Positions 5,174 through 61,339 of a stretch of DNA of 64,000 bases are shown here, piece after piece (within the stretch, counting starts at the first letter, position 1; each line of letters opens with the position of its first letter). Origin of the DNA: Dehalococcoidia bacterium. GTDB taxonomy: Bacteria; Chloroflexota; Dehalococcoidia; Bin125. The notes below the pieces were generated by a model. It saw only the letters and a program-made list of their open reading frames with translations, ran no database searches and was not told the origin of the DNA. The stretch covers positions 32,001-96,000 of the forward strand of contig CAXXRD010000004.1 in assembly GCA_963663895.2 (NCBI GenBank). The letters run 5' to 3'. Position numbers and translations under genes: made by a program.

Positions 5174-5977
5174 CTAACCCGCCCGTGTCGTCACCGGATC
5201 GTGGACGACCTGCGCGTCGACGACGACGGCCTCCCGCGCCAGCTTGTCCGCGATCCGGCGCCGGCGGCGGCGCGTCTCCTCGAGCGCGTTCAACGTGCGG
5301 AGTCCGCAGCGTGTATCACTGGCGACACGAGCGGGATCCTGTGTCGCCAAACGCCGCTTGAAAAGCCAATAGGTGAACTCCTTGAGCTCGGCGAGGCTGA
5401 TACGGTCGACATCTGGCCGTTGCTGCTCACGGCGAAAGGTCGCGAGCAGCGCGCGGCGCGGCACGCCGTAGATGTGCCGGAAGGTCTCCTCATCAACGCG
5501 GCTGTCGTAGCCGGCCGCCCAGGAGCGTCGTTCCTTCTGCAGGGCTTCCTCAACAGAGAGCTGCAGCGCCTCTTCGACGCACACGCCATACACGAAATTG
5601 AGGTGGGCCCGATACTTCGTCGGGCCCAGCGCTCGTCGCAGGGCCGCCTCGTCCAACTCGACCGGCAGCTGTCCATCAGCCAGCAGCGCTTCCACTTCAT
5701 CGGGGGGGAGGAGACCGTCCGGAGCGAGTGCGTCACAGAGCCGCTCGGCGAGGCAGAGCCAGTCCAGCGCTTCGCCGCCGATGAGGTAGCGATAGTGCCG
5801 CTTCTCGACCTGCTCCTCGCCGAGATCCCAAAGCGCGGCCGTTTCCAGAAGGGCTTCCCACCAGAGACGGCCGCGCCGGATCTCTTGGCGCAAGCGCGCG
5901 ATGAGCATCTCGGGGTCGCGCGACGCCAGCGCGCCGGGCGCCGCCGTGTCGACCGCGGCTGGGGCGTGATCCGGCAT
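5174..5977 (-). CDS. Conserved hypothetical protein
   Basis: Protein-like ORF between secA and valS. ATG 5977 overlaps the secA stop (TGATG). Confidence 0.7.
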   Translation of the reverse strand: MPDHAPAAVDTAAPGALASRDPEMLIARLRQEIRRGRLWWEALLETAALWDLGEEQVEKRHYRYLIGGEALDWLCLAERLCDALAPDGLLPPDEVEALLADGQLPVELDEAALRRALGPTKYRAHLNFVYGVCVEEALQLSVEEALQKERRSWAAGYDSRVDEETFRHIYGVPRRALLATFRREQQRPDVDRISLAELKEFTYWLFKRRLATQDPARVASDTRCGLRTLNALEETRRRRRRIADKLAREAVVVDAQVVHDPVTTRAG

Positions 5978-51425: not shown

Positions 51426-53801
51426 GTGGGGAATGGATGTCGAATTCCGCTCGCCGGCGCGGTGCTGCTCGCGGCGATCGTGGGAGCCGCCTGCGGAGGC
51501 GACGGGCAAGAGCGCGTCCCGGCCGCGGCTGAGCGGACGCCCGACCTCCCGGCAGCGGACGGCCGGGGGCCGGCCGGGGAGAGCGTGCCGGCGCCGGCCC
51601 CCGATCGCGCGGTCCAGGAGATCGACGCGGCGCGGCGGCTGATCGAACAGGCCGACGCCTTGGAGCACGACGGCTTCTGGGAGGCCGCGGCCGAGACGCG
51701 GGGCCGCGTCGCGCAGGGCGATCTCGGGCCGGCGCTGCCCGCCGGCGAGCGCCAGCGCGCACAGCTGGCGCAGGTGCGGCTGCTGCTGCGCCTCGGCCGC
51801 GCGGGCGACGCCCTGGTCCTGATCGAATCGCTGGACCGGAACGGCTTCGAGGCGTCGAATGGGCGCACGCTCGATCTGCTGACGGCGCGGGCGGCGACAG
51901 CCGTGGACGAGCGGACATCCGCCATCGACGCGCTCTCGCGCTATCTGGCGGCCGACGGCGCGGCGGCCGTCACGGCGCTCCTGATGCGCGCGCGGCTCCT
52001 CACCGGCGCTCAGCGCATGGAAGAAGCGGAGGCGGACCTGCGCGCGGCGATCGACCACGCCGCCGCTCTCCACGACCAGATCGCCGGCGCCCGCGTCGAA
52101 CTGGGCGCGCTGCTGGAGGGGCAGGCGCGCTACGAGGAAGCGAAGGCGCAGTACCGCGCCCTGCTGGCCGCCGCGCCCTGGTACGAAGCGATCGCGCTCC
52201 ACCGGCTGGGCGCGATCGCTTGGGCGCTCGGCGACCCGCTCGGCGCGGAGCAGTCGTGGATCCCGCTGATGCGGGACCACCCGCGCCATTGGCGATCGAG
52301 CGACGCCCTCTCCCAGCTCACCGACGGCGGCTGGGCCGTCAACCCCGTGCTGCGCGGCCTCGTTCTCTACAGGCATGCGCGCTACGACGAGGCGGCCGAG
52401 GCGCTGCGCGTCTTCCTCGAAACCGACCCTCCCGCGGCGGAGCGGCACGGCGCGGCCTACTACCTCGCGGCGATCGCGGAAGACCAAGGGCGGAGCCGCG
52501 AGGCGATCGCCGGATACCTGCGCGCGGTGGCGGCCGACGAGGGCGGGGAGCTGGCCGACGACGCCCTCTGGTGGGCCGCCCGCCTCGCCGAAGAGCTGGG
52601 AGAGCCCGCAGCCGCCATCCAGCACTACGATCGCCTGGCCGACGGCTACGCCGAATCGCCCTTCGCGGCGGACGCCCGCTTCCTGGCGGGGCTGGCTTCC
52701 TTTACAAATGGAGACATAACGGGTGCCCGGGAGCGCTTTGCCCGGCTGAGCGGAGAGGAGCGCGCCGCCGACGCGCAGCGCGGACTGCTGTGGAGCGGCA
52801 AGAGCCTCGCCCTGCTCGACGAGCCGGAGCGGGCCGCCATCGCCTACGCCCGAGCGATGACGCGCGATCCCTACTCGTACTACGGCCTGCGGGCGGCGGC
52901 GCTGCTGGCGGATCGGGTGGACCAGGCAACGGATCAGATCCGGGAGACGCCGGCCAGCGCGCCCTTTGCGCCGGACGGCCCCCGGCTGCGCGACGGCGGC
53001 GGCGCGATCGCCTGGCTCGCCGCGGCGCCGGGCCCGGCCGCCCCGCGGCGCGGCGCCGTGATCGTGCGCTCCCAGGACTGGCGGGCGGCGCAGGAGCTGC
53101 ACGGAGCGGGGCTGCGCGTCCAGGCGGACGCCCGCTTCCGCGCGCTGATCGACGCCTACCGGGCCGAGCCCTGGCTCCTGTACGTGCTGGGGCGCCACTT
53201 CGAGGCGCTGCGGCTCCCCCACCTGCGGATCGAGGCGGCGGAGGCGCTGCTGGCGCCGCTCGGCGATCAGGAGCGCGCCGCCGCGCCGCCGGAGATCCTG
53301 GCCTGGGCCTACCCAACCGGCTGGCGGTCGCTGGCCGTCCACGAAACGGAGGGGAACGCCTTCGACGAGCTCCTGCTCTACGCCCTGATCCGGCAGGAGA
53401 GCCGCTTCAACCCGGACGCGGGATCGCCGGCCGGCGCGCTGGGCCTCATGCAGGTGATCGGGCCGACCGGCATCTGGATAGCGGAGCGGCTCGGCGACGG
53501 CGCCTTCCACACGGCCGATCTCTTCCGGCCGCACCTCTCCATCCGCTACGGCGCCTTCTACCTGGGCGTGCAGCTGGAGACATTCCAGCATGCGCTGCCG
53601 CCGGCGCTGGCGGCCTACAACGCCGGCCCCGGCAACGCGATCCGCTGGTCGGGCGACGATCCGGGCATCGACCCCGACCTCTTCTTCGAGCGGATCAGCT
53701 TCGCCGAGACTCGCCTGTACCTAGAAGCGGTGCTCGAGAACTACGCCTGGTACCGCTTCCTCTACGCGAACGCCCCCGCGCCCAGCCTGACGGGGACCTG
53801 A
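51426..53801 (+). CDS. TPR-repeat lytic transglycosylase (Slt-type) lipoprotein
   Basis: Lipobox-like VGAAC, TPR-like helices, and ALIRQESRF, GALGLMQV and AAYNAGPG SLT motifs. Confidence 0.92.
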   Translation: MGNGCRIPLAGAVLLAAIVGAACGGDGQERVPAAAERTPDLPAADGRGPAGESVPAPAPDRAVQEIDAARRLIEQADALEHDGFWEAAAETRGRVAQGDLGPALPAGERQRAQLAQVRLLLRLGRAGDALVLIESLDRNGFEASNGRTLDLLTARAATAVDERTSAIDALSRYLAADGAAAVTALLMRARLLTGAQRMEEAEADLRAAIDHAAALHDQIAGARVELGALLEGQARYEEAKAQYRALLAAAPWYEAIALHRLGAIAWALGDPLGAEQSWIPLMRDHPRHWRSSDALSQLTDGGWAVNPVLRGLVLYRHARYDEAAEALRVFLETDPPAAERHGAAYYLAAIAEDQGRSREAIAGYLRAVAADEGGELADDALWWAARLAEELGEPAAAIQHYDRLADGYAESPFAADARFLAGLASFTNGDITGARERFARLSGEERAADAQRGLLWSGKSLALLDEPERAAIAYARAMTRDPYSYYGLRAAALLADRVDQATDQIRETPASAPFAPDGPRLRDGGGAIAWLAAAPGPAAPRRGAVIVRSQDWRAAQELHGAGLRVQADARFRALIDAYRAEPWLLYVLGRHFEALRLPHLRIEAAEALLAPLGDQERAAAPPEILAWAYPTGWRSLAVHETEGNAFDELLLYALIRQESRFNPDAGSPAGALGLMQVIGPTGIWIAERLGDGAFHTADLFRPHLSIRYGAFYLGVQLETFQHALPPALAAYNAGPGNAIRWSGDDPGIDPDLFFERISFAETRLYLEAVLENYAWYRFLYANAPAPSLTGT

Positions 53802-53815
53802 GGGCGAACTCTGAG

Positions 53816-53833
53816 GCCTCTATTCGTAGAGGC
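53816..53833 (+). terminator. Hairpin with UUCG loop after slt
   Basis: gcctcta-ttcg-tagaggc. No U-tract. Confidence 0.45.
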
Positions 53834-53937
53834 GGCGCGAATTCGGCGAGAACGTGGGGCGGCTGGATAATAATGCAGGGGGATAGATGCGAAAGCGAGT
53901 GCCGGACGATAGCTTATATTCCGTTCTAGGAGGTACC

Positions 53938-54978
53938 TTGCCACTGCCCACGGACGAGGCCCAGCCGCTCTACAGCACCGAGTTGGGTCTTATGTTCCAC
54001 GATAGCTGTGAATCAGCCTTGGCCCGACACCCCCTCACGGAATTGCAGGGCCGCGTTCATCTCCTCTTCACATCCCCTCCTTTCCCCCTCAACACCAAGA
54101 AACGTTATGGCAACCGCACCGGTGATGACTACCTGCGTTGGCTCGCCAGTCTCGCTCCCCTTCTAAGTTCGTTGCTTCGTCCTGACGGCTCATTGGTCAT
54201 CGAGATAGGCAACGCATGGGAGGCGGGGCGTCCGATTATGTCGACACTCCCGCACAGGGCTCTTCTCAGCTTCCAGGAAGCGTCGGGGCTCCACCTCTGT
54301 CAGGAATTCATTGCGTTTAATCCTGCTCGCCTGCCCTCGCCTGTCCAGTGGGTGAACGTTGAGCGAATCCGAGTCAAGGATGCATTTACCAGAGTCTGGT
54401 GGCTCTCCCCGACTGACAGACCTAAGGCCGATAATCGCAAAATCCTCACGGCCTATAGTAAAAGTATGCAAAAATTGCTCTCCCGCGGCACGTACAACCC
54501 CGGGAAGCGCCCCTCCGCGCACGATATCGGCACCACGTCGTTTCTCAGTGATAACGGCGGGGCAGTCCCACCAAATGTATTGGTTCCAAGCGCTGCCGAT
54601 GTGCTTGAAGAGGACGCATTAAGCGAAGAGGATGTTATCTCTAATCTGATACCCGTCTCGAATACATCCTCGCAGGATTCCTATCTGGAGCACTGCCGGA
54701 CTGAAGGGATTGATCCGCATCCTGCCCGAATGCCGGTAAAACTTGTTGAGTTTTTTGTCGAATTCCTCACCGATCCCGGAGACATCATCGTGGACCCTTT
54801 CGCAGGCTCAAACACCACAGGGGCAGTCTCGGAGCGGCTCGGGCGCAAATGGATCAGTGTCGAGGCGGATGCTGAATTCGCCTCGACATCATCAGCCAGG
54901 TTTCCATCGGTTGAGACCAGCGACCGGCAACACGAGAGTTTCGAGAAGATCTTCGCTATCGATCTGTCCGCTGGTTGA
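53938..54978 (+). CDS. Beta-class N4-cytosine DNA methyltransferase, M.PvuII-like
   Basis: TSPPF (motif IV) precedes DPFAGSNTTG (motif I). FNPARLPSPVQWVNVERIRVKDA, DNGGAVPPN and HPARMP recall M.PvuII segments. An AGGAGG RBS precedes TTG 53938 (the ORF track starts at 53887). Confidence 0.92.
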   Translation: MPLPTDEAQPLYSTELGLMFHDSCESALARHPLTELQGRVHLLFTSPPFPLNTKKRYGNRTGDDYLRWLASLAPLLSSLLRPDGSLVIEIGNAWEAGRPIMSTLPHRALLSFQEASGLHLCQEFIAFNPARLPSPVQWVNVERIRVKDAFTRVWWLSPTDRPKADNRKILTAYSKSMQKLLSRGTYNPGKRPSAHDIGTTSFLSDNGGAVPPNVLVPSAADVLEEDALSEEDVISNLIPVSNTSSQDSYLEHCRTEGIDPHPARMPVKLVEFFVEFLTDPGDIIVDPFAGSNTTGAVSERLGRKWISVEADAEFASTSSARFPSVETSDRQHESFEKIFAIDLSAG

Positions 54979-55636
54979 TCACCGCGAGATCAGAATCAAA
55001 TTCTTTCTCCAAGAAGCAACTCAAATCGGTGAGAGCAGCGACGGCCTCAGGGCTGATAGGGCGCTCGCTATGCCGGAAAATGAAGGGGTCGCCTGCGCTC
55101 GCGGCCTCCGTTTCTTCAATGACTGCCCTGAAGTGCGCAAGGCGCGCACGAAGGTCATTCGCTTTGCTCCTGGCAGAAATGCCCCAAAAGGAGCATGCAT
55201 CGTGGAACGTGATCTCACCAGATCGGCCCTCTCGCCATTTGGTCATCGCACGAGAGTCAAGATAGCGCTGGAGGTCGGTTCCAGTGGCTCGATCAAGACC
55301 CGCCTTGCGAGGTGATGCGTCAGAACCAGCGCGCAAGAGATCGAGGGCACGACGTTCACCTGCGGCGGTGAGTCGGTACTGTTTATTCCCGACTCTCTCG
55401 ATGAGTCCACGCTTGCGGAGGGGCTTAGACCCCATGATCTCTGCGAAGACACGGTTTGAGTCGGGATAGATAGGCGTCCCCGATTCATCAAGGAACCCTC
55501 TCAACCCGAACGTTTCAGGGGAAGCCTTCCAGGCCGCGACTACCAAGTCCTCGGCCGTAAAGACCGACTTGTCTGTCTCTCGAAGTCGCCAAGCCGAGAG
55601 GATGAGCTTCTCCGCGACGCCCAAGGACCGAGGCAT
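54956..55636 (-). CDS. Uncharacterised protein with a probable N-terminal winged helix
   Basis: FTAEDLVVAAWK...FGLRGF...YPDSNRV...LRKRGLIERVGNKQYRLTAAG (wHTH wing pattern). ATG overlaps the upstream stop (TGATG). Confidence 0.8.
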   Translation of the reverse strand: MPRSLGVAEKLILSAWRLRETDKSVFTAEDLVVAAWKASPETFGLRGFLDESGTPIYPDSNRVFAEIMGSKPLRKRGLIERVGNKQYRLTAAGERRALDLLRAGSDASPRKAGLDRATGTDLQRYLDSRAMTKWREGRSGEITFHDACSFWGISARSKANDLRARLAHFRAVIEETEAASAGDPFIFRHSERPISPEAVAALTDLSCFLEKEFDSDLAVINQRTDR

Positions 55637-57885
55637 CACATTGCCTCGGGCAAGCGGCCCTCAGTAATAAACGGTGTCAAGGCTCGTGCGGCTTTCCCTT
55701 GTACCTCGGACATCTGATCTCCCAATCGAGCCAACCAATCAGTCTGGTCCAGTAGTTCAGCATCGGGGCCGGCAAGTAGCGCTATGTAGACCATGATCTC
55801 CGTATACCGTTCGATATGGTACATGCGCCACTCTCGGCTCTCATAACCAAAGCCCCTCGATTCATCAAGGTAGAGGTCAGCAAACGGCGCTTCGCTGTTG
55901 ATCCACCAAACATTTAGCTCAACGTCGCGGGGTCGTTGATAAACCGGTGGAACATCGCGACTAAGCTGAACAGACTCACCTGTCTCCGGATCGGGGTCAA
56001 TGCCCGATATCAAGATCTTGGGGAACCCTTGCCTGCGGTCCTTCTCGGTTGATTCAACAACAGTCACCAGACTGGGAGCGGCCGCACATCGATCGTCAGC
56101 TGCGACGATCTCGGTCTCCCCGACCTCTCTGCCCCACACCAACCCTGCCGCGCTCACACTTGCGACAGCAGGGTTCGCCTCATTCCAAATCAAGTAGATA
56201 TCGCTCGTCGACCGGCCACCGCCCCGCAGCGTACACATCGCACTCAAGGAAGAGCGCGACCCTACAGCAACGCTCATAGTGCGGGGAACAACCTCCATGT
56301 CCTGGATATCAACGACTTCAAGAGTAACCTGTTCGCTCGTAAGTTTTCGATCGCGAGTCTCGGCCCAAATCTTCGTGACCCCCGGCGCGAAAGTATTTAT
56401 TACGTTAAGATCTTCGTCGACCAGAGCAACATTGGTGTCATCGACTTGCCAGTCAAATGGGGTTGGTTGAATGCGTCGCTCTTCCTGGAAGAAGCGGATA
56501 TTAGGTCGGAAGGACACGCCAACACCCGCATGGGCATGGCTCAAGCTCAGCTCGATTCGTGTAGGAGTACCTCTTGGCAACGGGGGGACTGGGTCACCTC
56601 CTCCCCTTAGGCCACCCCACAATGTCGTGAAATGACGCGACATGAACTGATTCTTCCATTGATCCAGCGCCTCGTTAATGCGACTGAGTTCACTCTGCCC
56701 TTGTTGGGTCCTATCTCTGCGCTCTCGTTGTTCCCAATCTCGACAGAAGTTCGAGAATTGTTCGGCAACCCAAGATTCCACAGCCCGAGTCAGCGGACTC
56801 TCCGCCAAGTTGGTGCGGGCGTTTGTCTTAAAGTCTGCCAAACTCTTTAGTTGGCACTCTCCATATACCTTCCACAGGTATGAGGACTGGAGATTCAGTG
56901 CCTCAACTGGTGTGAAGCCAAGAAAATCATCGTCGGCAAAGTAGGTAATGCTATGGCGGTGTCGGTGACTACGCGTCATTCGGACTTCGGAAGTTCTGAG
57001 GATAAGCCGTCCCTTCTCGTCCCCTGGCGTAACTGCCTGAATGACATCGGTGGTGAGAGGATCTAGTAGCTCGTCGGGAATCGGTATTTCAACCGGCTCG
57101 GGAAATTCGGAGGATGGAGGGATCGTTTCATGGGCGAGCGGTCCTCCACCGACGATCCTGCCTCTTTCCATGACGTACACGTGGCAGAGTTCAACGGCAC
57201 GTGTCGTCTGTGGGTGATTCTTGATGGACTGCACAAGCTCCTGGACAGGGATTCTCCGGCTATAGCCCTTTGGCTCTCGCCCCATCACGAGGGTGAAGCC
57301 ATTAGCGATCTCGAAGGCAGCACGAGCATTGTCGGGCAAGCCTGCGAACGTGACTCCCAGATCCCGGAGTGCATCCTCTAACTCAGCTTGCCGATCTGCG
57401 ACAGGGTATCCCCGGCTCTGTGCAGCATCCGGGATGTATCCAAATTGGAACGAGTTCGCCGCGACCCCGTATCTACTACCTCCACCCTCACTCACCGTCC
57501 GTATCTCCGCATGCTCACTGAACATCATGCTCATGTAGCACTTACCACCATTGCCATGCCCACCCTGAACCTGGATTCCAGGTGCATTCCGTGTTGCCGC
57601 GTCCGGATCAGCCCAGACCCGGAAGTTGCCCTCTATGGTCGCAGGGGTCATTCCGCCAAAGTCGAGCACACCGATCCCCTTGCCCCGCCTGCGAGTGCCC
57701 TGATCGAAGATGACAACGATGACGCGATCGGAAGGGGCAGTATTTCTCCGCGCGTATTCGTCAGACGAATTCTTAACCCACTCGGGGAGGCCGCCTTCGT
57801 GCGACTGAAATTCGGAGCAGATCAGCCTGACCGCCCCTTCCTTGTGGACATCTAGGACTTCGTCAGGCGTGTACTTGAATGCCAT
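55636..57885 (-). CDS. GHKL (MORC/MutL/Hsp90-like) ATPase with two Ig-like (Big_2-type) domains
   Basis: N-box EWVKNSSDE, G1 VLDFGGM, G2 GGHGNGGK, G3-like GFTLV; then WQVDDTNVALVD...APGVTKIWA and WNEANPAVASVSAAGLVWGREVGETEIVA. No signal peptide. Confidence 0.8.
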   Translation of the reverse strand: MAFKYTPDEVLDVHKEGAVRLICSEFQSHEGGLPEWVKNSSDEYARRNTAPSDRVIVVIFDQGTRRRGKGIGVLDFGGMTPATIEGNFRVWADPDAATRNAPGIQVQGGHGNGGKCYMSMMFSEHAEIRTVSEGGGSRYGVAANSFQFGYIPDAAQSRGYPVADRQAELEDALRDLGVTFAGLPDNARAAFEIANGFTLVMGREPKGYSRRIPVQELVQSIKNHPQTTRAVELCHVYVMERGRIVGGGPLAHETIPPSSEFPEPVEIPIPDELLDPLTTDVIQAVTPGDEKGRLILRTSEVRMTRSHRHRHSITYFADDDFLGFTPVEALNLQSSYLWKVYGECQLKSLADFKTNARTNLAESPLTRAVESWVAEQFSNFCRDWEQRERRDRTQQGQSELSRINEALDQWKNQFMSRHFTTLWGGLRGGGDPVPPLPRGTPTRIELSLSHAHAGVGVSFRPNIRFFQEERRIQPTPFDWQVDDTNVALVDEDLNVINTFAPGVTKIWAETRDRKLTSEQVTLEVVDIQDMEVVPRTMSVAVGSRSSLSAMCTLRGGGRSTSDIYLIWNEANPAVASVSAAGLVWGREVGETEIVAADDRCAAAPSLVTVVESTEKDRRQGFPKILISGIDPDPETGESVQLSRDVPPVYQRPRDVELNVWWINSEAPFADLYLDESRGFGYESREWRMYHIERYTEIMVYIALLAGPDAELLDQTDWLARLGDQMSEVQGKAARALTPFITEGRLPEAM

Positions 57886-58176
57886 CGTTGCTCTTCACAC
57901 TCGCTGGGCGTCTCGTCCAGTGAGGGGGATGATAGCGGGCCTACCCAAACAATTTCTCACGTGTGGTGGTCGGGGAGGAGGGAACCGTGCTGGGTCACTC
58001 GCTGTGCTTACCGATAGCAGAGGTAGACAGACGGATAGCTGGCTTCGGAGTGCTCGCGATCGTGGAGCGCACGCCGAGGCAGCGCAGACGCTCGCCCAGC
58101 CAATGTACGTCACTGGAGAAGCCGTCGGGACCTCCCCGAGCTCATCGGCCAGCGGTCTAAGGCGTGACGGGCGCGA

Positions 58177-58206
58177 TTGACCCCGTTTCGGCGCGGGTGC
58201 GATACT
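58177..58206 (+). promoter_or_regulatory. Probable sigma70 promoter of the rpmH operon
   Basis: TTGACC-N18-GATACT with a TG extended -10. Confidence 0.55.
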
Positions 58207-58256
58207 GCGGGAAATAAGCCCCGGCCGCCCCGAGGCGGCCGAAGACGACCATAACC

Positions 58257-58394
58257 ATGCCCAAGCGAACCTACCAACCCAAGCGGAAACGGAGAAAGCG
58301 CGTACACGGATTCCGGGCCAGGATGGCAACCAAGGGCGGCTGCGCCGTGCTCAAGCGCCGCCGCCGCCGCGGGCGCCATCGGCTGACCGTCTAA
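58257..58394 (+). CDS. rpmH: 50S ribosomal protein L34
   Basis: Manual translation: [45 protein letters not shown]. Below the ORF-track cutoff. Confidence 0.97.
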
Positions 58395-58440
58395 GTCATT
58401 CGAGCGCGGGCCGGCATCAGCGCCCCTGCCTCCTTCCCGT

Positions 58441-58770
58441 ATGCGTCGCCAGCAACGGTTGCGTCACCGGCGGGAGTTCGCGGCTGCCTACCGCAGCGGA
58501 GCGGTCTTTCGCAGCCGGCTGCTCGTCCTGCGCGTGCGCGCCAATCCGGACGTGGACGGTCCGCGATTCGGCTTCGCGGCGGGCAAGCGGCTGGGAAGCG
58601 CCGTGGTGCGGAACCGGCTGAAACGGCGCCTGCGGGCGGCGGCCCGCGGGAGCGGAGCGCGAGGAGGAGCGGACGTGGTCGTCATCGCGCGCCCGGCGGC
58701 GCTGCGGGCGTCCTACCAGGAGATCGAAGGGGAGCTGGGCCTGCTGCTCGGCCAAGCCAAGCTCCTGTGA
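58441..58770 (+). CDS. rnpA: Ribonuclease P protein component
   Basis: [32 protein letters not shown] and DVVVIAR. Confidence 0.95.
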
Positions 58771-59060
58771 GGCCTGCGGCAGCGCCGAAGCAGCTTGCGA
58801 TCGCGCTGATCCGGGGCTACCAGCGCTGCCTGTCGCCGCTGCTGCCGCCGAGTTGCCGCTTCGAACCGTCTTGCTCCCAGTACGGCGTCGAGGCCTTGCG
58901 GGAACGGGGGCTGCTCAGGGGCTCGCTCCAGACCGGCTGGCGGCTGCTGCGCTGCAATCCGCTCAACGGCGGCGGGTACGACCCGGTCCGCCCGCCTGCC
59001 GGGACGGCCGGTACCGGACACGACGGAGCCGCCGGGAAAACCGAAGTGCTGGAACGATGA
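58767..59060 (+). CDS. yidD: Membrane protein insertion efficiency factor YidD
   Basis: YQRCLSP...[10 protein letters not shown]...RLLRCNP...GGYDPV. Confidence 0.95.
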
Positions 59061-60295
59061 GCAGCGGGCCGAGCCGGCCGTGGTTTCACGTGAAACGCCG
59101 CCACCGGCTGCTGGTTCTCCCTCTCCTGGCGGGAACCCTGGCCCTCGCCTGCCAGAGCTTCGACACGGCCGACGGTTGGGCGTCGCCCCAAGTGTTCGAG
59201 GTCGGCGAGCGCGAGCTGATCATTCACGCCACGGGCGAGGACTCGATCGTGGCGATCGATCCCGGGACGGGCGAGAGCGTGTGGGAATTCCCCGACCCCG
59301 ATTCCGACGGCCGCTTCCCCGGGCTCCTTCCCGATATCGATGAGAAGGTCGACGCGGACTCCTTCTACGCCGAGCCGCTCCTCCTGGCCGGTGAAGAGCT
59401 GGCCGTGGCCACGCATAAGCGCGGTCGCGTCTATGCGCTGCGCTTGGACGGCACCAGCGCCCGCCTCCTGATAGAGACGGGATCGGAGATCGTGTCGGAG
59501 CTCAACCTGGACGCGGCCGGGGTGCTGTACGTGACCACCGCGACCGCGGGGGTGTTCGCGATCGACCCCGCGCTGCCGCTCGACCCGGAGAAGCCCCTCA
59601 GCGCCGGCGAACAGCCGGGGCTGCTCTGGCAGTACAACGCTTTCGACGGGACCATTTGGGGGAGCCCCGCGCTCGCGGACACGGAGACGCACGGCCAGAT
59701 CCTGCTGGTGCCGACGCTGGGGGGGACGCTCTACGCCCTGCGGACCGACCCGGCGGGCGGGACGGCGCGGGTGGCCTGGACGTTCGAGGCGGACGCCGGG
59801 ATCGGCGGCGACGCCGTGGTCGCCGACGGCCGCCTGTTCATCGGCAGCTTCGACCGCCATCTGTACGCGATCGACGTCGAGAGCGGAGCGGAGCTGTGGC
59901 GGCACCGCAGCAGCGACTGGTTCTGGACCGAGGTGCTCGTCACGGACGGCACCGTCTACGCGGGAGACCTGAACGGTTACGTCTGGGCGCTGGATGCGGC
60001 GACCGGCGCTCCCCGCTGGGATGCCCCCTATGCAGGCGGAGACGATTTCCGCGCCAAGCCGGGCCTGACGGCCGACGGGGCGATGCTGATCGTCGTAGAC
60101 CGCGACGGCTTCACGCACGCGATCGATCGGGAGAGCGGCAGCGGAGTATGGGTTCAGCCGAGGGAGACGCAGCTTCCCGACCTGTTCTATGCCAACCCGC
60201 TGGTGCTGGGAAGCGAGATCTTCGTGGCGAACGAAGCGGGTGAGCTGTTCCGCGTGAGCGAGGACGCGGTAGAGCTCTTCTACCCGCCGGACTAG
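59057..60295 (+). CDS. PQQ-like beta-propeller (BamB-like) lipoprotein
   Basis: Lipobox LALAC; repeats [35 protein letters not shown] and [12 protein letters not shown]. Start ATG 59057 or GTG 59090. Confidence 0.85.
59083..59096. promoter_or_regulatory. parS site (ParB binding)
   Basis: Perfect palindrome GTTTCACGTGAAAC, the core of the parS consensus TGTTTCACGTGAAACA, about 3.3 kb from parAB. Confidence 0.85.
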
Positions 60296-60316
60296 GGAGC
60301 GCGAGCGCCAACGACG

Positions 60317-61339
60317 ATGGAAACGATCGAGCTCATCTTCGACACGATCCTGATCGATCCGATCATGAACGCGTTGATCATCTTGGCGAGCGCGCTCTTC
60401 GGGAGCTACGGGCTGGCGATCATCGCCTTCACCCTGATCGCCCGGTTCGTGACCTACCCGTTGGTGCTGCGCCAGCTGCGCACGACGCGCGCCATGCAGG
60501 AGATGCAGCCGCGCCTGCAAGAGATCCAGAAGAAATACAAAGACCCGCGCCGGCGCCAGCAGGAGATGATGAAGCTTTACCGAGAGGTGGGCTTCAATCC
60601 TTTGGGCTGTGCCCTGCCGCTGTTGGTTCAGCTCCCGATCTGGATCGCACTATACCAAGTTATCCGTCAATCACTGGGGACGACCCCGGAGTCGCTCTTC
60701 GGACTGTCGGGGCGCCTCTACGACTGGACCTACATCACCGAGGCCCCGCCGCTCGATCGGAATTTCCTGACGCTGGACCTGGCGAATCCGTCCTTCATCC
60801 TGGCGATCTTGGTCGCCGTGGGCACGTTCGTGCAGCAGAAGCTCAGCACTACGCGATCGGTGGCCAAGGACGACCGTCAGGCCTCCGTGAACCGCACCAT
60901 GATCTGGATCTTGCCGATTATGTTCGGTTTCTTCTCCTTGCAGGTGCCGAGCGGCCTCTCGCTCTACTGGTTCGTCACCACCCTGTTCACCATCGTGGCG
61001 GCCTACATCTACAACGGCCCGGAGAACTTCCGTTGGCGGCAGCTCTTCACCATGGAGCCGATGCTGGCCCCCTCCACCGCAGCCCGCGCGGCGGCGGACG
61101 GCGGCGGAAGCCGATCATCAAACGAGCACACGGCGAGCGAGGATGAAAAAGCGGCCGAGCCGGGCGAGCCGGCCAAGCCCCAGGCGCAGGAGGCGCCGGC
61201 GCGGCGGTCGCGGCGGCGGCGGCGCCGGCGGCGGCGGCGCGGCGGCAACCGGCCTTGGGAGCAAGGAGAGAACCGGGCGGCGGGGGACGGCAACTCGCGA
61301 TCTTCATCTGGAGCATCGGACGATCCCTCCGCACAATGA
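60317..61339 (+). CDS. yidC: Membrane protein insertase YidC/Oxa1 (short, monoderm type)
   Basis: YGLAIIAFTL, MQPRLQEIQKKYK, NPLGCALPLLVQLPIW and SGLSLYW. Confidence 0.95.
   Translation: METIELIFDTILIDPIMNALIILASALFGSYGLAIIAFTLIARFVTYPLVLRQLRTTRAMQEMQPRLQEIQKKYKDPRRRQQEMMKLYREVGFNPLGCALPLLVQLPIWIALYQVIRQSLGTTPESLFGLSGRLYDWTYITEAPPLDRNFLTLDLANPSFILAILVAVGTFVQQKLSTTRSVAKDDRQASVNRTMIWILPIMFGFFSLQVPSGLSLYWFVTTLFTIVAAYIYNGPENFRWRQLFTMEPMLAPSTAARAAADGGGSRSSNEHTASEDEKAAEPGEPAKPQAQEAPARRSRRRRRRRRRRGGNRPWEQGENRAAGDGNSRSSSGASDDPSAQ

Follow-up and report, generated by a model that had tools for sequence, protein, structure and literature searches.

We describe here a three-gene islet in the genome of a Dehalococcoidia bacterium (assembly GCA_963663895.2; 2.37 Mb in 5 contigs), located within a stretch of 64,000 nucleotides that spans positions 32001-96000 of contig C4 (CAXXRD010000004.1) and is hereafter called the window. 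The islet encodes a putative N4-cytosine DNA methyltransferase (P0001), a protein of 749 aa with a predicted MORC/paraMORC-type GHKL ATPase followed by immunoglobulin (Ig)-like domains (P0003), and a partner protein (P0002). The three genes are a real, conserved and unannotated module. On the basis of sequence comparison, we give a slightly better than even chance to the islet being a methylation-gated, restriction-modification (R-M)-like defence module of new architecture. In such a module the methyltransferase would mark resident DNA, P0002 would bind DNA via its winged-helix-like N-terminal domain and recruit or trigger P0003, and P0003 would dimerise on ATP and close as a clamp around DNA, like other GHKL proteins. 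The pair would then act on DNA without the mark.

The islet sits in a housekeeping setting: it follows a gene for an SLT/TPR transglycosylase, which ends at 53801, and downstream of it are rnpA, a YidC-family gene, jag and an open reading frame (ORF) at 58258-58395 that resembles rpmH (by eye only). The GC content is 0.53-0.58 over 54000-57999, against 0.64-0.78 in the flanks. Two genomes of the same genus match the window at 51500-53805 and 58176-60500 with 94% and 85-87% identity, and between these matching flanks they have 362 and 1084 bp compared with 4370 bp here. Because both genomes carry the flanks and not the islet, we interpret the segment from approximately 53806 to 58175 as an insertion or replacement, and the islet is best explained as a horizontally acquired three-gene module. 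The original prediction, made from the DNA letters alone, had described a compact, lower-GC three-gene islet in an otherwise housekeeping region at 53802-58170. The ORFs, GC content and flanking genes confirm that description, and the span given is almost exactly that of the inserted segment; position 53802 marks the start of the islet, the methyltransferase ORF having its first start codon only at 53887. Full-length P0003 occurs in 2 of 61 genomes (this one and its relatives). In the junction alignments neither a repeat nor an integrase was noticed, no repeat search having been made. In run X4 of another study, one contig (record 29) matches the window only from 58176, after 194 unlike letters, while low-depth contigs hold a copy of the islet that is ~98% identical, a picture consistent with presence/absence variation though short of proof. 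The contig layout of four runs shows islet presence only; a single joint spanning the islet in run X3 (53639 to 58335, side 30, depth 5.7) was too weak and was not used. No RNA data set was listed as carrying the islet.

Within the islet the genes are tightly packed. ORF coordinates confirm that the methyltransferase gene converges on the partner gene with a 23-nt overlap of their 3′ ends, as had been predicted (Table 1). On the minus strand the junction between the P0003 and P0002 genes reads ATGTGATG. Two starts for P0002 are possible there: a GTG that shares 4 nt with the end of the 749-aa gene, whose stop is TGA, and an ATG that shares 1 nt with it. The latter is the TGATG coupling that had been proposed for these two genes; the protein database contains the ATG form of the partner (P0123, 226 aa). 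Homology shows P0002 to be inherited together with P0003 and translationally coupled to it. All three ORFs are full length and without internal stops. Their 19-residue Kyte-Doolittle maxima are 0.74-1.12 (P0003, 1.05), and none of the proteins has a hydrophobic segment.

Predicted functions of the three proteins

P0003 belongs to a family of at least 353 proteins at E <= 0.001 (8000 candidates scored, 90% identity clusters). Among the 120 matches listed, the window protein apart, identity to P0003 is 44-56%, and the names, where given, are ‘hypothetical’ or ‘Ig-like domain-containing’. With P0003 itself as query, Pfam yields one Big_2 domain only, and NCBIfam and PADLOC yield nothing. The GHKL ATPase label of the original prediction was confirmed only through profile-profile comparison. 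Here, 27 family sequences (residues 1-440) were aligned by hhalign to 24 HATPase_c_3 ORFs from related genomes, giving a probability of 96.2%, an E value of 2.4e-9 and a score of 75.9 over 311 columns. By comparison, the reversed template scored 15.5, 20 column shuffles 10.5-18.4 and two unrelated alignments 13.5 and 19.8. A shorter cut of 270/300 residues gave an E value of 9.6e-5, and use of only 5-8 template sequences gave 4e-4 to 0.0095. Moreover, the named clusters nearest to homologue P0009 by Atlas features are all HATPase_c_3 (score 0.96, 203-205/256 features in common).

The ATP-binding motifs were followed in an alignment of 25 members of the main family, the window protein being one row, and in a three-variant alignment of 15 rows that combines the main family with two distant variants. 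N-box residues E35, N39 and D42 (EWVKNSSDEY) are invariant in both (25/25 and 15/15) and in register with the HATPase_c_3 N-box. A G1-like motif, D75-F-x-G78-M, is one residue shorter than DNGxGM/DxGxG; D75 and G78 are likewise invariant (25/25 and 15/15), and hhalign sets them on the D and second G of the template with a one-column gap. The G2 motif QGGHGNGGK aligns to the template iGxxGiGxK, with G108, G109, G111, N112, G113, G114 and K115 invariant in 25/25; across the three variants the motif residues from G109 to K115 are still invariant and G108 is not. By homology, the N-terminal ~390 residues of P0003 are thus a predicted MORC/paraMORC-type GHKL module with intact ATP-binding motifs. 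The hhalign alignment reaches residue ~391 and pairs IYGEC...KQNxR (K353/N355/R357) with the lysine stretch GEv...nK of the template. K353 is invariant in the 25 main-family members and R357 in all three variants, and the middle part after the ATPase gives an E value of 0.0053 on its own. This suggests that the region after the ATPase fold may be an S5/transducer domain.

The ATPase module is followed by a helical, charge-rich (coiled-coil-like) stretch and a Pro/Gly linker, after which come the Ig-like domains. Big_2 matches P0003 at 1.7e-7 over residues 528-599 and matches 25/25 family members, and the family profile matches the tandem Ig domains of PDB 9ifo (1.3e-9, profile positions 483-613), Ig-like matches being the only ones for P0003 in PDB. 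The Ig domain originally predicted is therefore borne out as two tandem Ig-like domains. As all three proteins are free of hydrophobic segments, these domains are cytoplasmic. The C-terminal ~130 residues are strongly conserved (D632, P633, P646, P647, Q650, D654, N658, WWINS, Y672, W686, R687, E692 and R693); this domain has no match in PDB or Pfam and was not found in any protein of 30-410 aa. Of its residues, only P633, P646, N658, W661, N663 and G680 are invariant across the three variants, alongside W91, M118, Y150, F197, T198, R310 and R357 elsewhere outside the ATPase motifs. Both D632 and D654 persist in the main family and in one variant that lacks the Ig-like domains, not clearly in the other, plasmid-borne variant, and E692 is kept in the main family only. 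Inspection of the C-terminal domain by eye found no Toprim- or MutL-type nuclease motifs.

P0001 was identified from several sources. It matches Pfam N6_N4_Mtase (PF01555) at 3e-30 over residues 57-334, PADLOC MTase_II PDLC03323 at 1.3e-90, and M.PvuII (PDB 1boo) at 7.6e-76 over residues 26-232 and 253-346, relative to which it carries an insert of ~20 residues (233-252). Its motifs are in beta-class order, with TSPPF at ~61-65 and then DPFAGSNTTG (FxGxG-type) near 303-312. The m4C methyltransferase with an SPPF motif that had been predicted is thus M.PvuII-like by sequence match and motif, and from this similarity and the SPPF motif we infer that its product is N4-methylcytosine.

Less can be said of P0002: nothing in Pfam, NCBIfam, PADLOC or PDB matches it significantly. 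The nearest signals are Pfam HVO_A0261_N (E 0.01, 16 bits, below the cut-off of 35) and, for the family profile, IdeR in PDB (E 1.0). Its superfamily is large, with 384 proteins at E <= 0.001 among 90% clusters and, among 50% representatives, 1741 at E <= 0.001, 851 at E <= 1e-10 and 181 at E <= 1e-30. Nearly all members are 220-240 aa, those listed are named ‘hypothetical’ or ‘Ig-like domain-containing’, and ten longer members (260-392 aa) contain no Pfam domain over the curated cut-off. In the Atlas model of homologue P0239 (pTM 0.47, pLDDT 0.79), residues 2-108 align to winged-helix clusters, including Mrr_N and iron-dependent repressors, with TM by row of 0.60-0.75, all ‘under the bar’. 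The winged helix of the original prediction finds no sequence match in Pfam, NCBIfam, PADLOC or the hhalign comparison with Mrr_N given below; from the likeness of a predicted model, a winged helix in the N-terminal domain of P0002 is a reasonable lead, not a result. The family has few invariant polar residues (E30, R117 and D147) and a C-terminal half that looks helical by eye, features that do not look like those of a nuclease. P0002 was also considered as a small PD-(D/E)xK enzyme and rejected: a PD...E...K-like stretch at 59-72 is unconserved, D60 being N in 2 rows and E67 and K72 being replaced in 3.

Recurrence of the module across phyla

A census with one genome per species gave 36 loci from about 17 phyla, as judged by record titles, of which 24 have an intact, full-length P0003. 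The partner gene lies directly downstream of the P0003 gene in 23 of these 24, the exception being L014, and pairwise distances of P0003 and P0002 are strongly correlated (r = 0.83, 0/2000 permutations as high). A PvuII-like methyltransferase adjoins 16/24 intact loci. Five loci are cut by contig ends; when only the 19 intact loci with >1.2 kb on both sides (fully flanked) are considered, a DNA methyltransferase is adjacent in 17, PvuII-like in 16 and Dam-like in one. Counting the locus of the window itself, five gene arrangements are seen. Neighbourhood conservation had been put forward as a check on the original prediction, and the three genes do recur as a unit across many phyla.

The position of the methyltransferase gene is variable. 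The 16 PvuII-like genes occur in four arrangements: downstream on the same strand (9), downstream and convergent as in the window (1), upstream on the same strand (4) and upstream and divergent (2). In 6 of the 9 downstream same-strand cases the longest methyltransferase ORF overlaps the stop of the partner gene by 4 nt. The Dam-like gene, at L016, is convergent, lies 3 nt after the partner gene and encodes a DPPY motif (PADLOC MTase_II 1.9e-33; Pfam D12 only 0.004). Since 2 of the 19 fully flanked loci and two distant variants have no adjacent methyltransferase, the link is frequent and not obligatory. The methyltransferases fall into two PvuII-like clades, with no fewer than 4 switches between them along the P0003 tree and no significant clustering (49 and 72 of 500 shuffles gave as low a value). 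With so many changes of clade, the link has re-formed repeatedly, nearly always with the same methylase family.

In three loci P0003 is broken and the methyltransferase is kept: the ATPase gene is interrupted by a 357-aa ORF in L027, split in two ORFs in L029 and truncated in L030. Such a pattern is typical of R-M decay. As a separate observation, the interrupting ORF of L027 (L027:3520-4590) has no PADLOC match and may be an insertion element; the partner and methyltransferase of that locus are intact.

Proposed methylation-gated defence and competing readings

In favour of the islet being a methylation-gated defence module stand its insertion, the matches of P0001 and P0003, the constancy of the pair, the methyltransferase link, the R-M-like decay and the toxin-antitoxin, defence and plasmid settings described below. 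A number of observations weigh against it. No nuclease family was found in any of the three proteins, either with single sequences or with profiles, in Pfam, NCBIfam, PADLOC or PDB; this bears out the original statement that no restriction nuclease is visible, and it leaves a putative restriction arm that is inferred from context. With respect to the ATPase, 0/25 family members match any Pfam HATPase model, even at E <= 10, and a scan of the window’s own genome with PF13589 (HATPase_c_3) at E <= 10 gave 7 places, none of them in the window. With respect to the partner, the winged-helix call comes from a single predicted model (pTM 0.47), and when the partner family was compared by hhalign with six Mrr_N proteins from related loci there was no signal (18.0, against shuffles of up to 17.5). 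The remaining points concern linkage. Two loci (L009 and L014), with >4 kb on each side, have an intact ATPase gene and no nearby DNA methyltransferase. Distances of the methyltransferase and P0003 are weakly correlated (r = 0.30, 25/2000 permutations as high). In 4/5 genomes whose pair has no PvuII-like neighbour there is no PvuII-like gene at E <= 1e-10, these being metagenome-assembled genomes of unknown completeness; one of the four, that of L016, has the Dam-like methyltransferase beside the pair instead. The fifth case, L009, counts in favour of the module: its ATPase closely resembles that of L001, which does have the methylase, and its genome has two PvuII-like genes elsewhere. Among the distant variants, the methyltransferase on an Ensifer adhaerens plasmid lies ~4 kb away, across a McrBC-like pair, and is of a plasmid-type N6_N4 kind with a NikA-like N-terminus, and no methyltransferase was found among the scanned neighbours of the Ig-less variant (L035, G008 and G028).

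Much of this linkage evidence speaks for the main rival reading, in which the ATPase and its partner form an autonomous two-gene system, blind to methylation and serving defence or another DNA transaction, with the methyltransferase often travelling along on the mobile islets as, for example, an R-M remnant or companion. Loci L009 and L014, the two distant variants with no directly adjacent methyltransferase, the tight co-divergence of the pair and not of the methyltransferase, the unclustered methyltransferase clades and the different methyltransferase class at L016 are all in its favour. We nevertheless regard this alternative as unlikely. An adjacent methyltransferase is present in 17/19 loci, 16 of them with one family despite several exchanges; in 6 loci the methyltransferase ORF overlaps the partner stop within one operon; and the methyltransferase of the window is without a second R-M component, be it a nuclease or a specificity subunit.

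If the islet is indeed an R-M-like module, the manner in which it would restrict DNA has to be considered. Either ATP would drive entrapment or exclusion of DNA without a nuclease of its own, or with that of the host, or a cryptic nuclease site would reside in the C-terminal domain of P0003; we hold these two to be close to evenly balanced, tilting slightly to the former. Across the three variants, no set of acidic residues or lysines is conserved beyond the ATPase motifs, which speaks against their sharing a metal-dependent active site elsewhere in the protein, and it is for this reason that we lean towards a non-nucleolytic block. Methyltransferase and ATPase co-diverge only weakly, which is hardly what one would expect of a sequence-specific nuclease tied to a single methylase. 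The original prediction had also proposed action on unmethylated or invading DNA, possibly by binding or silencing and not by cutting; its interpretation is partly supported, by the recurrence of the three genes, the MORC-type module and the M.PvuII-like methyltransferase, and such an action would still be hypothetical. A fully specified version, in which a MORC-like clamp aimed by the winged-helix partner topologically entraps or compacts DNA without N4-methylcytosine and so blocks its replication or expression, is a minority possibility at present.

A further alternative is a writer-reader module, in which an Mrr_N-like winged helix of the partner would read N4-methylcytosine and load the clamp, for chromosome organisation, silencing or islet maintenance in place of an attack on foreign DNA. 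Mrr is a modification-dependent enzyme and eukaryotic MORCs act in the silencing of methylated loci. Mrr_N clusters are among the structural neighbours of the partner N-terminal domain (TM by row 0.60-0.63), no nuclease was found, and loss of the methyltransferase, as in L009 and L014, would be easily explained. Against this, the hhalign comparison of the partner family with Mrr_N proteins shows no similarity, and a patchy, islet-borne spread (2/61), toxin-antitoxin and defence neighbours and plasmid carriage fit a conflict system better. We consider a writer-reader role quite improbable.

Lastly, the cassette could be an inactive or decaying passenger in this genome, its genes intact by chance. 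In the tree no terminal branch is longer than that of the window P0003 (0.99 versus a median of 0.32), an upstream accessory gene present in 15 related loci is absent here, and broken copies exist elsewhere (L027, L029, L030, L033 and L034). However, each of the three genes is an uninterrupted full-length ORF, the overlaps of 1 or 4 nt and of 23 nt are preserved, and the ~98% identical copy of run X4 comes from another study. All family-invariant residues are kept as well, which follows from the list of invariants having been defined with the window protein as a row. A passenger is, in our view, very improbable.

With respect to named systems, neither P0002 nor P0003 matches any model of PADLOC-DB v2.0.0 (0 families each at E <= 0.1), PADLOC being one of the checks that had been suggested with the original prediction; we take these models to include Shedu and Tiamat. 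No description of the gene triad was found in the literature, the supplementary lists of PMC2292703 and of the Tiamat preprint not being covered.

Neighbouring genes and known systems

Genes upstream of the ATPase gene fall into three accessory kinds, none of which is present in the window. In 7 loci from different phyla a MazE/AbrB-type antitoxin and a PIN toxin (VapBC-type) are encoded directly upstream; Pfam confirmed all that were scanned (5/5 PIN ORFs and 3/3 antitoxin ORFs). This pair could be a travelling addiction module or a fourth component. In six actinobacterial loci the gene directly upstream encodes a protein of ~190 aa whose N-terminal segment is conserved and which ends, after a basic linker, in an Mrr_N domain (confirmed in 4/4 scanned); this protein might be a controller-type regulator. 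Two loci have an HTH_17 protein at this position. With the pseudogene loci L033 and L034 (15 ORFs) excluded, 15/150 neighbouring ORFs, in 10/27 loci, match PADLOC models at E <= 1e-8, a figure that has no background control. The matches include Type IIG, SspH-like, pAgo-like, DrmC-like, PDC-S02, -S09, -S11 and -S17, and 2/15 are generic S-adenosylmethionine (SAM)-methyltransferases. One locus is a dense defence island in its own right (L016:2997-13178), with an HNH protein, PDC-S11 (DUF4268), the Dam-like methyltransferase, a Type IIG restriction-methyltransferase and a Mu-type transposase. No match to P0003 was found in the phage collection.

The two distant variants differ in their setting. 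A conjugative plasmid of Ensifer adhaerens (L090; NZ_CP118613.1 52502-68598) carries a pair of 800 aa (24% identity) and 229 aa whose genes overlap by 4 nt, beside a McrBC-like AAA_5 ATPase pair; the partner homologue is recognised by hhalign with a probability of 99.6%. This plasmid pair offers a cultured source of the system. In the Ig-less variant (L035 and L059) the pair is preceded by a luciferase-like monooxygenase, and the ATPase is followed by a sigma-70 region 4 protein, which in the complete L035 copy also has a HARE-HTH domain.

In the window, a sigma-70 scan found no site in the leader of the ATPase-partner operon (57886-58175); the sole site found is at 58177-58206 on the plus strand, in the conserved flank upstream of the putative rpmH. 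Two further features of the flank were observed. An ORF of 480 aa for a PQQ/BamB-like beta-propeller (window 58853-60295) stands between rnpA and the YidC-family gene, in an otherwise classical rnpA-yidC-jag cluster, and within the YidC-family gene region the GC content dips to 0.60 at window 60500-60999 (surroundings ~0.65-0.72).

Table 1. Coordinates of features of the islet (window positions) and of related loci.
Feature	Position	Strand	Basis or remark
Inserted low-GC islet, 4.37 kb	53806..58175		GC drop; same-genus genomes match only outside
Putative M.PvuII-type beta-class N4-cytosine DNA methyltransferase P0001, 363 aa	53887..54978	+	Pfam, PADLOC, PDB, motifs
23-nt convergent overlap, 3′ ends of methyltransferase and partner genes	54956..54978		ORF coordinates
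Partner P0002, 227 aa from GTG / 226 aa from ATG at 55636	54956..55639	-	N-terminal ~108 residues winged-helix-like (predicted)
Predicted MORC/paraMORC-type GHKL ATPase with Ig-like and C-terminal domains, P0003, 749 aa	55636..57885	-	family profile, alignment
Predicted GHKL ATPase and S5/transducer-like region, residues ~10-391	56713..57858	-	hhalign, invariant motifs
Two tandem Ig-like (Big_2-type) domains, residues ~440-612	56050..56568	-	Pfam, PDB 9ifo
Family-specific C-terminal domain, residues ~620-749	55639..56028	-	conservation
Non-coding leader of ATPase-partner operon; promoter region presumed	57886..58175	-	within inserted segment
Antitoxin-toxin loci L006, L010, L013, L021, L022, L023, L030	about 5200-5970 in each	same as ATPase gene
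Mrr_N-type genes	L012:2448-3326, L015:70-597, L017:5396-5974, L020:3240-3818, L033:2546-3055, L034:192-704
Ig-less variant	L035:5316-8916; L059:3-3475 (G008); G028:C1:1237940-1239694		partner gene first, then 615-aa ATPase homologue

If the pair is the restriction arm, a compact three-gene system would be added to the defence catalogue, and it would offer both a tractable bacterial model for MORC-type GHKL clamps on DNA and a test of methylation-based discrimination of self from non-self without a dedicated nuclease. The closest published precedent dates from 2008 (Iyer, Abhiman and Aravind), when, in the part of that paper covered here (PMC2292703), MORC/paraMORC GHKL ATPases were predicted in R-M operons, most with superfamily II helicases and nucleases; a minority of MORC neighbourhoods have a methylase or restriction enzyme only and no helicase, and paraMORC5 has a family-specific C-terminal extension of unknown fold. 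The common ground, as far as that part extends, is a GHKL and S5-like module beside DNA methylases on mobile islets. The P0003 family is set apart by what follows the module, namely a coiled-coil-like linker, a pair of Ig-like domains and a C-terminal domain of its own, and Pfam HATPase_c_3 is blind to P0003. Its fixed partner is a 227-aa winged-helix-like protein and not a superfamily II helicase or nuclease, and its methylase is of the N4-cytosine PvuII type, whereas those in the same part of PMC2292703 are mostly (C5) cytosine methylases. Neither ‘immunoglobulin’ nor ‘winged’ occurs as a word in PMC2292703, its additional files not being covered. The original prediction had not recognised this combination of genes as a named system: that holds insofar as no PADLOC model or description was found. 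The underlying association of GHKL/MORC proteins with R-M operons has been in print since 2008 (PMC2292703, part covered). What appears to be new is a MORC-type ATPase with Ig-like domains and a C-terminal domain of its own, joined to a fixed partner and a PvuII-type N4-cytosine methylase, with no helicase or nuclease; the general idea of GHKL proteins in R-M was already known.

Two GHKL-nuclease systems, both validated in defence, are also related. In the parts of the respective texts that we draw on, VcSduA/paraMORC3 of Shedu type I-D has an N-terminal GHKL domain and a PD-(D/E)xK nuclease (DUF4263; PMC12137116), and Tiamat has an N-terminal GHKL/GHL ATPase and a C-terminal PD-(D/E)xK nuclease, with some of its genes neighbouring methyltransferases (bioRxiv 10.64898/2026.09.30.754977). 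On these accounts, what they share with the islet is an N-terminal GHKL/GHL ATPase thought to gate a DNA-directed effector, but both carry a recognisable PD-(D/E)xK nuclease and none was found in the islet proteins. Should a cryptic nuclease be found in the islet, it would define a new nuclease fold.

In comparison with PvuII R-M, P0001 aligns over nearly its whole length with M.PvuII, but the islet has no R.PvuII-like small endonuclease and no C-protein, and has the 749-aa ATPase and 227-aa partner instead. In BREX, a methyltransferase marks self DNA and ATPase-containing partners block unmarked DNA, with no nuclease identified. The likeness to the islet lies in this logic of methylation-based exclusion without a recognised nuclease. 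The components differ: the islet has no PglZ, BrxC, BrxL or PglX homologue (none of its three genes matches the PglZ, BrxC or PglX models of PADLOC and Pfam) and has three genes versus six, its ATPase is GHKL versus P-loop, and its methylase is a small beta-class N4-cytosine enzyme. If the nuclease-free reading is true, the islet would represent a second methylation-based exclusion mechanism besides BREX.

The same reading would also link the islet to eukaryotic MORC proteins. These have a GHKL and S5 module followed by a coiled coil, and their ATP-dependent dimerisation clamps DNA in a non-nucleolytic manner. P0003 has the same order of parts as predicted, with a GHKL module, an S5-like region and a coiled-coil-like stretch, and would clamp DNA in the same manner. 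The islet system is prokaryotic and islet-borne, has no CW zinc finger and has a separate, putatively DNA-binding partner, and silencing is purely hypothetical here. If nuclease-free, the system would stand as a bacterial counterpart to MORC silencing in eukaryotes and possibly as its functional ancestor.

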